Assembly (NCBI GenBank): GCA_050331735.1
Contig: JBHJGN010000098.1
Coordinates: 1-33,431 of the forward strand
Length of the DNA stretch: 33,431 nt
From: Cyanophyceae cyanobacterium
Lineage (GTDB): Bacteria > Cyanobacteriota > Cyanobacteriia > Cyanobacteriales > JBHJGN01
Direction: 5' to 3'
Shown here one piece after another: positions 4,362 through 33,429 of the stretch. The notes under the pieces are model-generated. The model had not been told where the DNA came from. It saw nothing but the letters and a program-made list of their open reading frames with translations, and ran no database searches. The position numbers were made by a program, and so were the translations under genes. Numbering within the stretch: the stretch's first letter is position 1; each line of letters starts with the position of its first letter.

Positions 4362-4436
4362 ATGGCGAGTCAAGAACTGAGTACCAGCGCTCAAAAAGTT
4401 CAAGATGCTTTCTCAGAGATGGGGTTGAGCTTTCAG
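4362..4436 (+). pseudogene. 5' fragment of a YbaK/EbsC-family (aminoacyl-tRNA editing) gene
   Basis: MASQELSTSAQKVQDAFSEMGLSFQ resembles the LSxSAQxVQxAL N-terminus of YbaK/EbsC proteins; similarity is lost after ~25 codons. Confidence 0.55.
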
Positions 4437-4586
4437 TGCGCAAATCACAGGCGGCAAAGTGATTTCGATTCAATGAGCAAGCGTAGCCGCATAAGAATTG
4501 GCAGTTTTTATGGGCGATCGCTCTTGCGTTTCCGAACTATCCGAGTCTGCCGCTGATCTTACCCGTTAGAGCTATAGACCTACATT

Positions 4587-4663
4587 TGGCAGAAGTGGCG
4601 GGACTCAAACCCGCACCTATCTGGTTGTTTAAACCGATGCTCTGCCAGTTGAACTACACCGAT
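4587..4663 (-). ncRNA. Degenerate tRNA-like element with encoded 3' CCA
   Basis: Minus strand: ATCGGTG TA GTTC-AACTGGCA-GAGC A TCGGT-TTAAACA-ACC(A)GA TAGGT GCGGG-TTTGAGT-CCCGC CACTTCT G CCA. D and T arms pair well; the acceptor stem has 2 mismatches and the anticodon stem a bulge. Confidence 0.8.
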
Positions 4664-5035
4664 AGACAGCTCACGGGGTCGGAAGTAGTTCCGACCCCGT
4701 GTCCTCAGCAATAGTCCCCGAACCCACCCTCACCAGATTCAACAGATCAACACGCGGTAGTCAAGTGTTATTTTGCACTGTACTCTTGTCACATTGCTGG
4801 GCGTAACCGATAAATCGGATTTGAACCGTTTGCGCTTGCCCGCAGCGCGCCAAGGAAGTGTCGTTTCGTAGGACACAGATTTCCAACTTGCCCAGTTAGC
4901 GGGTTGTGTTCGCCTCTGCTGGCTCTGGATACCAACTATTGTTTAACTATCCACCAACTTCAAGCTCCGCCCGAAGGAGTGCAAGCTCCAGGGCAGTTTT
5001 ACGTTCTCAGGAAACCTCCGAACTCTGCCCTGGCT
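4587..5035 (-). ncRNA. Candidate ~450-nt structured RNA downstream of the DIP1984-family gene
   Basis: Stems at 4988-4996/5025-5033, 4926-4953, 4854-4884, 4832-4848, 4816-4828 (T-loop), 4797-4802/4890-4895, 4726-4732/4793-4799 and 4672-4701 (13-bp perfect), ending in a tRNA-like module. No ORF of 60 aa or more on this strand. Confidence 0.65.
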
Positions 5036-5038
5036 GCT

Positions 5039-5491
5039 TTAAGCAAGCTCAACCTGCCAGTTTAGGGCTTGAATCTGCGCGTCTAAAAGACGATGCTCTT
5101 GGGACACCCGATCAAGCTGACGCTGTAAGTCTGCAATATCAACGGTGCTTACAAATCGCACCTCTGACCGACTGTAACGGTTACTGGTAACGGCGGCGTG
5201 CTGAATTAAGTTACTTAAGACATTATGCTTAGCGATCAGCGTGTCGCGCTGTGCTAAGGCATCCGATAGTGTGCCCTCAGTAAAAGCAGTGTTTGAGTTC
5301 GTCCGGTTAATACGCTGGATCAGACCAGTTAGCTCAGAAATTGTTGCTTCTAGCTCTGCTAAAAGCGCTTGGGGGTTTTCAGGAGGCTGATCGCCCTCTT
5401 GGACTTGAGCACTTCGCATCAATCGCTGACTGAGTTGAGAAATTTTCTTTTGACAATCAGCCCGTAAGATGAGGGCTTCCGCGAGCTTCAT
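5039..5491 (-). CDS. DIP1984-family helical/coiled-coil protein
   Basis: Family signature MKLAEALILRAD...QVQEGDQPPENP...RINRTN...RYSRSEVRF...LDAQIQALNW; strong SD AGGAGG upstream. Confidence 0.9.
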   Translation of the reverse strand: MKLAEALILRADCQKKISQLSQRLMRSAQVQEGDQPPENPQALLAELEATISELTGLIQRINRTNSNTAFTEGTLSDALAQRDTLIAKHNVLSNLIQHAAVTSNRYSRSEVRFVSTVDIADLQRQLDRVSQEHRLLDAQIQALNWQVELA

Positions 5492-5691: not shown

Positions 5692-6075
5692 TTATGCCAG
5701 TGAGGAAAGAGAGGCTTCGTGCCTCTGCCACAGCTTGTAGAGCAAGAACTCGGTGCGATCGCTCAGCACAGCTAAAAACGTTCCTTCAAGAGCGTCACTA
5801 CTCTCGGCGAGCCAGCTTCCGTGCAGGTTAACCTCTACTAGCTCATCATCAACAGCCATGACGGTGAGCAAGCTGCCCTCCCGTTGCAGCCTCATTTCTA
5901 GCTGCTCTAACTCAGGAATATCACCAGGCAACAGAAAGGAAGCACAACCTGGTTCAACATAGAGAGCTTGTCCTAAGCGCACAGCCAGGAGGACTCGCTG
6001 GGTAATGACCATCTCTGGGGAGGTTACAACTCGCTCCATAAATAGTCCTACTTCGGTATAGTTCAGCTTCAACAT
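5692..6075 (-). CDS. Cyanobacterial alr0857-family conserved hypothetical protein
   Basis: MLKLNYTE...RVLLAVRLGQALYVEPGCASFLLP...VEVNLHGSW...EGTFLAVLSDRTEFLLYKLWQ; SD AGGAGG upstream. Confidence 0.8.
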   Translation of the reverse strand: MLKLNYTEVGLFMERVVTSPEMVITQRVLLAVRLGQALYVEPGCASFLLPGDIPELEQLEMRLQREGSLLTVMAVDDELVEVNLHGSWLAESSDALEGTFLAVLSDRTEFLLYKLWQRHEASLSSLA

Positions 6076-6176: not shown

Positions 6177-6217
6177 AAAAAATAACCCCCGCTTCTGGTA
6201 CTTAGAAGCGGGGGTTA
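6177..6217 (-). terminator. Intrinsic terminator
   Basis: Perfect 14-bp stem (6183-6196/6204-6217, TAACCCCCGCTTCT) followed by T6 on the minus strand. Confidence 0.85.
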
Positions 6218-6722: not shown

Positions 6723-7586
6723 CTACCCTCGATTCGTACAAAAAACCCCAGCAATCACTAATGCGCCGCCTACAGCTAAGGCCAACGTAATCGGTTCTCC
6801 TAGAAGTAAAGCCGCGAGCAGAATGGCCGCTATGGGAACAAGATTAATGAAGATCGAAGCTTTGGCCGCACCGATGGAGCGTACTCCTGAGTAGTACCAG
6901 CTAAAGCCAAGGGCTGAACCAAACAGCCCTAGATAAAGAACGGCTAATCCCGCAGCGAGGGAAAGCTTTTGAATGTCGGTCATTAAGCCATGCTGCAGTG
7001 CTGGAGGCAATAAGGCGATCGCTCCCACAATACAGGCAGAGGTTGTCGCCACCAGGGGAGACAACTGGCCCATGACCTGCTTACCCACCAGCGTATAAAC
7101 GACCCAACTGGCAACGCAGCCGAACATAAATAGGTCTCCAATCTGCACTCCTCCGGTCAGCAAGTCGAGAGGATTGCCTCGACCAATGACGATGGCAGCC
7201 CCCCATAGCGAGGTGGCGATGCCCAGCAGCTTCAGAGGCGTGAGGCGTTCTCCTAAAAATAGCGCCGAGAAGAGGGCGATCGCAATCGGATTGAGCGCGA
7301 CAATCAGTGCTGCCCGTCCTGCCGGAACTGTTTGTAGTCCTAAAAAGAAGAAAATATTGTAGGCAAACACCCCGCTTAATCCGAGCACCAGGATTTGTGG
7401 GAGTTGCCGGAGTTTCAGTGCTAAGCCCCCTTCTAGAGAATAAGTCACAATGAGTAAGGCAACTGTGGCTATAGCAAAGCGCATGAACGCCACCGCGAAC
7501 GGATCGACACTTTCAACAACGAGGCGACCCGCGATAAACGTGCCTCCCCAAACGATTGCCGTCAGCACCAGTTGCACGTAAACCAT
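6723..7586 (-). CDS. DMT/EamA-family transporter
   Basis: About 10 TM helices; WGGTFIAGR, FMRFAIA, ASIFINLVP, LLGEPIT. Confidence 0.92.
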   Translation of the reverse strand: MVYVQLVLTAIVWGGTFIAGRLVVESVDPFAVAFMRFAIATVALLIVTYSLEGGLALKLRQLPQILVLGLSGVFAYNIFFFLGLQTVPAGRAALIVALNPIAIALFSALFLGERLTPLKLLGIATSLWGAAIVIGRGNPLDLLTGGVQIGDLFMFGCVASWVVYTLVGKQVMGQLSPLVATTSACIVGAIALLPPALQHGLMTDIQKLSLAAGLAVLYLGLFGSALGFSWYYSGVRSIGAAKASIFINLVPIAAILLAALLLGEPITLALAVGGALVIAGVFCTNRG

Positions 7587-28304: not shown

Positions 28305-28378
28305 GGCTCAGTAGCTCAGTTGGTCAGAGCAGGGGACTCATAAGCCCAAGGTCGGGTGTTCAAATCACCCCTGAGCCA
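28305..28378 (+). tRNA. tRNA-Met(CAT), probably elongator; CCA not encoded
   Basis: GGCTCAG/CTGAGCC acceptor stem, GCTC/GAGC D-stem, anticodon loop CTCATAA, T-arm GGGTG-TTCAAAT-CACCC. Confidence 0.95.
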
Positions 28379-31685: not shown

Positions 31686-31752
31686 CACACCCTGTCAAGG
31701 TGAATAATTGTAACAAGACGTTTGTTGTGACAAATGTTATGTATACTTTCTG

Positions 31753-31817
31753 TGTGTGAGGAGCGAACCAGAAAAAGAACCGAGACGAAACACGGCCAGT
31801 CGTCGGTTCTTTTTTTG
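31753..31817 (+). ncRNA. Yfr2-family-like cyanobacterial small RNA
   Basis: -10 TATACT at 31742-31747; 5' GTGTGAGGAG; hairpin AAAAAGAACCGA..GAAACAC..TCGGTTCTTTTTTT with GAAACA in the loop and a U-tract. Family name from recalled motifs. Confidence 0.6.
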
Positions 31818-31937
31818 ATGGAAGAAAACTCTTCTGCTGCTCAGCGATAATGTTGCGTATCCTTGGGGAAGCTGATTAGAGCTAGATTGTTGACAATTGT
31901 TGCTTACTTGTAGCCAACCAAAACCAACTTCCATTGG

Positions 31938-33297: not shown

Positions 33298-33311
33298 GAA
33301 GGAAGAAGAGA

Positions 33312-33429
33312 CCTGGCACCGAGCTATTGTCCCAGCCGGTGACCCGACCAGTATCTTCGCCGCTGCTCCGTTTCACGCTCGAGTTCGGGATGGAGTCGAG
33401 GTGGTTCCCAAGCGCTGGCGGCACCAGGA
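33312..33429 (-). rRNA. rrf: 5S ribosomal RNA
   Basis: Minus strand TCCTGGTG...CCATCCCGAACTCGAGCGTGAAAC...GAAGATACTG...AATAGCTCGGTGCCAGG. Confidence 0.96.

Follow-up and report, generated by a model that had tools for sequence, protein, structure and literature searches.

The stretch of DNA analysed here, referred to below as the window, consists of 33,431 nucleotides (nt) of contig JBHJGN010000098.1 from Cyanophyceae cyanobacterium (assembly GCA_050331735.1). It carries on its minus strand a gene of the DIP1984 family (DUF6847) followed by a structured RNA that was found, behind the same gene, in at least seven bacterial phyla (Table 1). The identity of the gene, initially proposed from the sequence alone, holds over its full length, since the encoded protein matches NF038048 (195 bits, cut-off 70; residues 2-149 of 150), PF20935/DUF6847 (185 bits, cut-off 27) and PDB entry 3kdq (E 2e-38). 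This entry, titled "uncharacterized conserved protein", is the only solved relative; with a crystal structure available since 2009, the family still has no assigned function. The AlphaFold model of the protein consists of four long helices, with a predicted local distance difference test score (pLDDT) of 83. The family is large, with 4240 clusters at 90% identity matching the window protein. Members are common on Acinetobacter plasmids under the wrong label "septicolysin", and full-text searches found no papers on the protein except those naming it in plasmid or genome annotation. Among the control genomes, DUF6847 is also present in that of Deinococcus radiodurans, where the first studies of bacterial Ro60 and Y RNA were made.

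The sequence-only reading of the locus had proposed one RNA of about 450 nt, running from the stop codon of the gene to an encoded CCA. Its observation that this run of helices has no ORF stands, as the listing of open reading frames (ORFs) contains none of at least 60 amino acids (aa) in 4587-5038, and the whole 461-nt stretch is more stable than 100 of 100 shuffled sequences (z -2.73). What relatives conserve is 4703-4942 alone. BLAST of 4587-5038 against 60 relatives gave matches confined to query positions 232-332, in 7 genomes, with the DIP1984 gene just upstream in the matched loci. The block that aligns with relatives corresponds to 4703-4942 of the window, and the 96 nt that follow the stop codon, a 13-bp hairpin and a tRNA-like element remain unaligned. 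The match of our RNA model R1 to this block is the single one in the window's own genome. Median lengths of the RNA across the family are 215-221 nt, compared with 240 nt in the window.

The two segments bordering the conserved RNA are themselves structured, as had been noticed from the sequence. The 96-nt spacer folds with a z score of -2.46 and includes the hairpin CCAGGGCAG/CTGCCCTGG as well as a second hairpin, and the perfect 13-bp hairpin on the other side is likewise real. Nevertheless, the spacer is missing from most relatives, where the RNA begins a median of 10 nt past the gene, and the 13-bp hairpin was not found in relatives. Further copies of the spacer or of the 3' tail with its 13-bp hairpin were not found in the own genome, and the idea of a repeated element was dropped. 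Judged from these comparisons, both segments are single-copy, genome-specific insertions.

The structure of the RNA was written from a scan for pairs in an alignment (A3) of 60 distinct RNAs that a search with an RNA pattern had yielded, with two controls, in which the 3' partners were slid by 1-3 columns or the alignment was shuffled 500 times. Over 31 pairs including a pseudoknot, 96.0% of 1852 cells are standard pairs, compared with 26-42% after sliding; changes on both sides occur in 18/31 pairs, and none of the 500 shuffles reached any of the observed measures. The protein served to find two further sets, one of 77 RNAs (96.2% paired, both-side changes in 26/27 pairs) and one of 66 mostly actinomycete RNAs (93.2% paired, again 26/27 pairs). 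Fitting these two alignments to the model biases them towards the structure, yet their slid controls still gave 26-41%; related genomes in all these sets are not independent samples. A covariation analysis downstream of DIP1984 genes, which the sequence-only reading had suggested as a check, thus revealed conserved, covarying structure in three alignments. Comparative analysis defines the element as a covarying structured RNA whose long closing stem is interrupted and which also has hairpins, a pseudoknot and an invariant loop rich in G.

The outer helix P1 was tested apart from A3 because it is misaligned there. The longest helix formed by the 5' flank with its own 3' tail has a mean of 6.18 pairs, compared with 4.75 for tails of other sequences, and P1 of the window has 8. 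Compensatory differences separate clades, with GAGCAAG/CUUGCUC in cyanobacteria and GAUGCAG/CUGCAUC in Acidobacteriota. Between P1 and P2 lies a large internal loop, whose GGUA side is kept in 200/203 RNAs and whose G-rich side follows the pattern GAGGGNGGGNNNGGGG, with variable N positions, in 188/203. Two helices that had been read from the window sequence, TGGATA/TATCCA and CAGCAAT/ATTGCTG, are not kept as such in relatives; the first sequence provides instead the 5' strand of the conserved P2, and the second the 3' strand of the conserved P1. Hairpin P5 shows both-side changes in 2/4 pairs in A3 and in 4/4 in both protein-found alignments. At P7 and the pseudoknot the subgroup of the window is one column off in A3, and the pairs were read directly from the sequence; the window coordinates of all RNA elements were checked in the same manner against the sequence. 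A hairpin with the consensus GGUUCRANYCC, resembling a tRNA T arm, occurs in 118/203 RNAs, where the others have a short linker. For the region of about 4754-4798, a hairpin proposed by RNAalifold from 8 sequences fails in Acidobacteriota and was rejected. The junction, with G3-N-G3-N3-G4 (N variable) and GG opposite, looks like a G-quadruplex between two helices; this is speculative, a G-quadruplex appearing in the minimum-energy fold of 1/6 RNAs tested (that of locus L017). Two Paenibacillus RNAs, L017 and L028, are longer, with about 30 nt inserted into the central region, and L017 also has a fourth GGG tract.

Table 1. Features of the DIP1984 locus in window coordinates
Feature	Position	Strand	Remarks
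Terminator-like hairpin	6183..6217	-	14-bp stem then T run; upstream of alr0857-family gene
alr0857-family gene	5692..6075	-	NF045647, 144 bits; same strand, upstream of DIP1984 gene
DIP1984 family (DUF6847) protein gene	5039..5491	-	150 aa; stop UAA 5039-5041
Spacer with two hairpins	4943..5038	-	96 nt from stop codon to conserved RNA; genome-specific
Conserved DIP1984-associated RNA core	4703..4942	-	about 240 nt; model R1 164 bits, E 6e-43
P1, 5' strand CAAUAGUU	4934..4941	-	outer helix; pairs with 4709-4716 GACUAUUG
GGUA, 5' side of large internal loop P1/P2	4930..4933	-	near-invariant
5' strands of P2 (4924-4929), P3 (4915-4921) and P4 (4906-4910)	4906..4929	-	compensatory changes
Internal-loop motif GGCGAA	4909..4914	-	RGCGAR in 170/203 RNAs
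P5 hairpin CUAAC/GUUGG	4883..4899	-	96% of cells paired in A3
Variable hairpin GUGUC/GACAC	4858..4876	-	differs in length and sequence, or missing, in relatives
P7 hairpin GCGC/GCGC	4832..4848	-	both-side changes in 4/4 pairs (A3)
Pseudoknot, P7 loop GGGC with GCCC	4838-4841 with 4799-4802	-	96.7% of cells paired, both-side changes in 2/4 pairs (A3)
T-arm-like hairpin CGG-UUCAAAU-CCG	4816..4828	-	optional module
3' strands of P4 (4749-4753), P3 (4740-4746) and P2 (4732-4737)	4732..4753	-	compensatory changes
G-rich 3' side of P1/P2 loop, GAGGGUGGGUUCGGGG	4716..4731	-	near-invariant
P1, 3' strand GACUAUUG	4709..4716	-	pairs with 4934-4941
Perfect 13-bp GC-rich hairpin	4672..4701	-	z -5.8; no U tract; genome-specific
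Degenerate tRNA-like element	4587..4663	-	encoded CCA; ARAGORN: Phe, anticodon AAA; apparently derived from array tRNA-Thr(UGU)

The RNA and the DIP1984 gene are strictly linked, whichever of the two is taken as the starting point. An IUPAC pattern made from the most conserved 3' part of the RNA and applied to contigs of one genome per species gave 63 loci, or 64 with the window. These belong to cyanobacteria, Pyrinomonadaceae/Blastocatellia, Paenibacillus, another Bacillota metagenome-assembled genome (MAG) and a Chloroflexia MAG. In 57/64 loci, ORF clustering placed a DIP1984 gene immediately before the RNA, in the same orientation, and tblastn added 5 with a gene that runs off the contig, is frameshifted or has lost a part, bringing the total to 62/64. 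The two loci without it, L033 and L060, are truncated RNA copies. One Pyrinomonadaceae contig carries two RNA copies within about 4 kb, of which L061 is complete and lies behind DIP1984, and L060 has lost both the 5' strand and the gene. At three loci (L036, L048 and L081), deletions join the DIP1984 coding region straight to the 3' half of the RNA, leaving decayed copies of the module.

In the opposite direction, an alignment of 16 protein sequences was used for a scan that gave at least 534 loci. The best 80 of these, searched with R1 (218 positions), come from Cyanobacteriota, Acidobacteriota, Chloroflexota, Bacillota, Armatimonadota and Gemmatimonadota. R1 matched on the same strand just behind the gene in 77/80, and the sequences of the 3 misses end 11-226 nt past the gene. 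A second scan, led by a Streptantibioticus protein, gave at least 584 loci; among the best 80, 12 repeats were left out and R1 matched 66 of the remaining 68. These loci are mostly from Actinomycetota, together with Ktedonosporobacter, a Bryobacterales MAG and Conchiformibius. The module also occurs on plasmids and phage-like contigs. Downstream of the gene, R1 gave 102 bits on a plasmid of Picosynechococcus, 48 bits in Streptantibioticus and 39 bits on a plasmid of Enterococcus faecium; the match on a plasmid of Acinetobacter baumannii is weak (13.7 bits, E 0.002). Of 6 IMG/VR contigs with DIP1984, 4 have an R1 match. Named carriers of the module include Leptolyngbya sp. PCC 7375, Picosynechococcus sp. 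PCC 7003 (plasmid copy), Paenibacillus glacialis DSM 22343 and Streptomyces. Two samples of whole genomes provided a test starting from neither partner. Among 151 genomes of the window's phylum, DUF6847 above its cut-off and a strong R1 match were found in the same 6, adjacent each time; two others had one weak partial RNA match and one sub-threshold protein match, respectively. In the other sample, 121 genomes of the phylum to which a Pyrinomonadaceae MAG belongs, RNA and DUF6847 were found in the same 3, again adjacent. The comparisons thus strongly support the view, suspected from the window sequence, that gene and RNA form one unit, which is conserved, same-strand and abutting, and whose two parts coincide in presence and absence in both phylum samples.

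The distance from the protein match to R1 has a median of 10 nt (at most 20 nt in 63/77 loci), so that most loci have no room for a separate promoter. This spacing, with P1 beginning at or beside the stop codon, and the fact that intact RNA and gene were never found apart, are also what a cis-acting element in the 3' untranslated region (UTR) of the DIP1984 mRNA would produce. Such an element could serve as a protective 3' end or as an autoregulatory binding site for DIP1984, with no role in trans. We consider this unlikely. Known 3' stabilisers need far less than about 220 nt, a pseudoknot, five helices that covary and about 20 unpaired, near-invariant bases, all kept in at least seven phyla. 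Moreover, the RNA is a discrete unit closed by P1, 13/77 loci tolerate 28-490 nt inserted between it and the gene, as does the window (96 nt), and the tRNAs that flank the RNA in some loci (see below) would be cut away.

The tRNA-like element at the 3' end of the region bears on whether the RNA is longer than its conserved core. The cloverleaf with CCA seen by the sequence-only reading is partly confirmed, in that ARAGORN calls a tRNA and CCA is encoded. It is a poor tRNA, however: its Rfam tRNA score is 28.9 bits, below the threshold of 29, the acceptor stem has 5/7 pairs, the anticodon arm needs an insertion and has an altered loop, and the fold of minimum energy (z -1.44) lacks the cloverleaf shape. 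The D arm and the T arm of the element are preserved. The window's genome has 39 tRNA calls, among them a normal tRNA-Phe(GAA) and a normal tRNA-Thr(UGU). Clues on the origin of the element were obtained from the closest relatives, which embed the module in arrays of 9-21 tRNA genes each (L010, L033, L043, L064 and L065) or of 4 (L036). Array-embedded modules were also found in Adonisia, Leptolyngbya PCC 7375 and a Leptolyngbyaceae MAG, and at least 5 same-strand tRNA genes lie within 3 kb in 15/64 loci, 6 cyanobacterial and 9 acidobacterial. In L033, L043, L065 and L075 the gene after the RNA is tRNA-Thr(UGU); in L075 it starts at 2192 and the RNA match ends at 2198, an overlap in the last bases. 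The array-type order is tRNA-Leu, DIP1984 gene, RNA and tRNA-Thr. The window element aligns with this tRNA-Thr in L033, L043 and L065, and with a tRNA-Thr farther downstream in the array of L064; it shares its encoded CCA with L033. The element thus appears as a degenerate positional homologue of the array tRNA-Thr(UGU), and not as the integral tRNA mimic initially proposed. It is probably the last, decaying gene of a lost tRNA array; that it may still act as a processing handle is possible, but we rather doubt it. The module of the window would accordingly be a stripped-down copy, with one decayed tRNA-Thr left and two genome-specific hairpin insertions gained. One IMG/VR viral contig, L239, carries DIP1984, a weak R1 match (29 bits) and 8 tRNA genes within 5.5 kb, and the link to tRNA clusters therefore reaches phage-like elements. 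Elsewhere in the window, a tRNA-Met(CAT) lies at 28305-28378(+), a 5S rRNA at the window end (33311-33428(-)), and a Cyano-1 RNA (RF01701; 44 bits, gathering score 41) at 31750-31819(+).

These results also bear on the original view of one RNA of about 450 nt, extending from the stop codon to CCA and with the tRNA mimic as an integral maturation domain, which now seems very unlikely. It gains some support from the structured nature of the whole stretch, from the preserved D and T arms and CCA of the tRNA-like element, and from the retention of this element as the only one of the ancestral array. Since a tRNA abuts the RNA in array relatives, RNase P could also set the 3' end there, and maturation through a flanking tRNA is plausible for these loci. 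Outside the array subgroup, however, neither the 96-nt 5' part, nor the 13-bp hairpin, nor the tRNA-like element is conserved with the core, and the two acceptor mismatches, the altered anticodon arm and the sub-threshold score speak against a maintained tRNA-like domain in the window.

Genes for RNA repair are recurrent neighbours of the module in other genomes, as the sequence-only reading had pointed out while noting that the window itself has none. In 25/64 loci, all cyanobacterial and with Microcoleus among the carriers, a gene for a protein of about 480 aa lies upstream (a cluster including L012:3722-5158(-)). This family matches nothing in Pfam or NCBIfam, its phmmer match to a TROVE chain in PDB has an E value of 0.52, and a profile of 11 of its sequences misses TROVE. 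Its AlphaFold model (pLDDT 67, predicted template modelling score 0.41) shows helical repeats followed by an alpha/beta domain, and the best 13 Foldseek matches, which are all those with E up to 0.001, are Ro60/TROVE proteins including D. radiodurans Rsr (E 2e-8 to 7e-6). The closest named ESM-Atlas clusters are TROVE/vWA_Ro60 (0.96 and 0.95). This model of modest confidence suggests that the family folds like Ro60 and represents a divergent Ro60 branch, in which case bacterial Ro60 censuses based on Pfam, whose TROVE model misses it, would undercount this branch. The same loci also carry an RNA ligase (PF09414 with an OB domain) or Tpt1/KptA, and other recurring neighbours, near some of the tRNA-array loci, are RtcB, an HNH endonuclease and an AAA ATPase. 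In high-GC actinomycete loci, spurious long ORFs overwhelmed the clustering of neighbouring genes. Between the Ro60-like gene and DIP1984, 8 loci (L039:1896-2327(+) and 7 more) have a conserved ORF of about 135-158 aa without Pfam or NCBIfam match.

A repair gene on the same strand follows the RNA after 33-330 nt in some loci, and together with the T-loop-like hairpin this brings to mind a 5' leader resembling a riboswitch or T box, controlling a downstream RNA ligase, RtcB, Tpt1 or AAA ATPase gene. We regard this as highly improbable, given that the downstream gene varies by locus and the constant neighbour is the DIP1984 gene upstream. The window has no such gene, the next listed ORF (4362-4556) being on the other strand and without family match.

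Published work on cyanobacterial tRNA arrays provides a context for these neighbourhoods. According to the accessible part of PMC8421152, long tRNA arrays have spread horizontally, are induced by translational stress, and are co-regulated with rtcB and an HNH gene in Anabaena, whose gene all4315 is also said to be linked to arrays. The available portion of PMC10272220 adds that the repressor TrcR also controls asr0855-alr0856-alr0857, and places alr0857 in the translational-stress regulon of Anabaena. An alr0857-family gene lies upstream of DIP1984 in the window; its start is also matched in array loci L036 and L065, and the family is present in L033. The terminator-like hairpin upstream of this gene possibly delimits a transcription unit. 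Farther upstream, 6723-7586(-) encodes an EamA/DMT transporter; a DMT transporter also appears in the TrcR regulon table of Anabaena, as far as that table is accessible in PMC10272220, which may be coincidence. The module resembles the long-array system in that its nearest relatives lie in arrays of 9-21 tRNA genes, with HNH, RtcB, AAA ATPase and alr0857 genes nearby. It differs in the window, where the array is lost, one degenerate tRNA-like element is left and no TrcR-type repeat occurs near the locus. The accessible text of both accounts (PMC8421152, PMC10272220) makes no mention of DIP1984 or its RNA.

Comparison with catalogued RNAs was made with Rfam 15, in which no family matches the RNA core, either in the window at gathering scores and at E up to 10, or in related loci (12 at gathering scores, 9 at E up to 1). 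YrlA (RF02553, gathering score 69 bits) and Deinococcus_Y_RNA (RF01053, 80 bits) have no match in the own genome, and sub-threshold YrlA hits in 9 related loci fall on tRNA pairs. Transfer-messenger RNA (tmRNA), RNase P RNA, 6S RNA and group I introns were considered, and none was called by ARAGORN or Rfam. Searches of the literature on DIP1984, DUF6847, PF20935, 3KDQ, septicolysin and Y RNAs, the supplements of PMC4201824 and PMC8421152 aside, found no description of the RNA. Comparative data thus identify an uncatalogued RNA family with structured members about 200-240 nt long, in line with the earlier impression that it belongs to no named family.

The RNAs that it most invites comparison with are the Y RNAs, including YrlA and the Deinococcus Y RNA, which are 80-130 nt long and carry a 5'-strand motif, GNCGAAN0-1G, tied to Ro60 binding, according to the accessible text of PMC4201824. 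As in these RNAs, both ends form a long stem (P1-P4, with compensatory changes). A purine-GCGA-purine loop motif at the equivalent place of the 5' strand resembles the GNCGAA motif, and many members have a T-arm-like hairpin in the distal domain, where YrlA has a tRNA-like domain with near-invariant T and D arms; no D arm was identified in the DIP1984-associated RNA. In both cases the RNA is encoded beside the gene of a partner protein, here a putative one, in loci with RtcB or RNA ligase. The DIP1984-associated RNA could then be a true Y RNA whose partner is Ro60, with DIP1984 as an accessory and copies in genomes without Ro60, such as that of the window, as leftovers. The long stem with RGCGAR, the T-arm-like hairpin, the divergent Ro60 upstream in 25/64 loci with RNA ligase, Tpt1 or RtcB nearby, and the few YrlA RNAs found in cyanobacteria, as far as PMC4201824 is accessible, all agree with this view. 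We nonetheless judge it quite unlikely. The RNA is about twice as long as Y RNAs, matches neither Y RNA covariance model nor any other Rfam family at the permissive E values given above, and has a pseudoknot and an invariant G-rich junction that set it apart. Exact GNCGAA occurs in 20/203 RNAs only. Its obligate neighbour is DIP1984 and not Ro60, every intact copy being linked to DIP1984, whereas 39/64 loci and the whole genome of the window lack a Ro60-like gene.

A more distant parallel is tmRNA, an RNA of a few hundred nt with pseudoknots and tRNA-like parts that works in translation rescue with one small dedicated protein, SmpB. The DIP1984 module would likewise combine a structured, pseudoknotted RNA with tRNA-like parts and one small dedicated protein. 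Unlike tmRNA, the core has neither a tag reading frame nor an acceptor end, and ARAGORN and the Rfam tmRNA models find nothing.

Covariation, strict adjacency and co-occurrence, and the neighbourhoods rich in repair genes and tRNA arrays together lead us to infer that DIP1984 and its RNA form a ribonucleoprotein (RNP) resembling Y RNA particles and acting in RNA damage or translational stress. On balance we favour this interpretation, with some confidence; the likelihoods given here to the competing readings overlap in part. The RNA would be transcribed as a 3' extension of the DIP1984 mRNA and, in array relatives, as part of a tRNA operon transcript. It would then be trimmed to its outer helix P1, by tRNA-processing nucleases where tRNAs flank it. 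DIP1984 would bind the RNA, probably at the near-invariant junction of GGUA and GAGGGNGGGNNNGGGG, to give a stable RNP that, like Ro60-Y RNA particles, would help the cell to respond to RNA damage or translational stress. The optional T-arm-like module could offer a tRNA-like surface to tRNA-handling enzymes or nucleases.

Several observations weigh against this interpretation. The same linkage of gene and RNA is expected from a purely cis-acting 3' UTR element. Foldseek with the DIP1984 model finds its own family alone (3kdq), with no recognisable RNA-binding fold, and the region of about 4754-4798 in the RNA has no supported helix of at least 4 pairs. The stress or repair role also rests on other genomes, as the window's genome has no cluster of at least 3 tRNA genes, no TROVE or Ro60-like gene anywhere, and no repair gene beside the module. 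The promoter repeats of TrcR and of long tRNA arrays, as given in the accessible part of PMC8421152, were not found near the locus: one form of the repeat gave 3 matches with one mismatch (chance alone would give about 0.6), each of them distant from the locus, and the other form gave none.

It is tempting to go further and to speculate that DIP1984 and its RNA represent a hitherto unrecognised, widely transferred class of bacterial RNP distinct from Ro60-Y RNA. Here the junction between P1 and P2, with GGUA opposite GAGGG-N-GGG-NNN-GGGG, would form a G-quadruplex-like core clamped by the four-helix protein, and the T arm would mimic tRNA. Travelling with supernumerary tRNA arrays and RNA-repair genes, such a particle might sense tRNA-cutting nucleases or divert them as a decoy, or might be an adaptor that recruits ligases to broken tRNAs in translational stress. 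We offer this elaboration tentatively, and would not expect it to hold in full.

For the DIP1984/DUF6847 family, an obligate structured RNA partner would provide the first testable hypothesis of function, and the RNA itself adds a large covarying member to the set of uncatalogued RNAs. It may also explain the scarcity of YrlA RNAs in cyanobacteria. Finally, the presence of the module in horizontally spread arrays and beside Ro60-like, RtcB, RNA ligase and Tpt1 genes would link Y-RNA-type particles, RNA repair and stress-induced tRNA operons.

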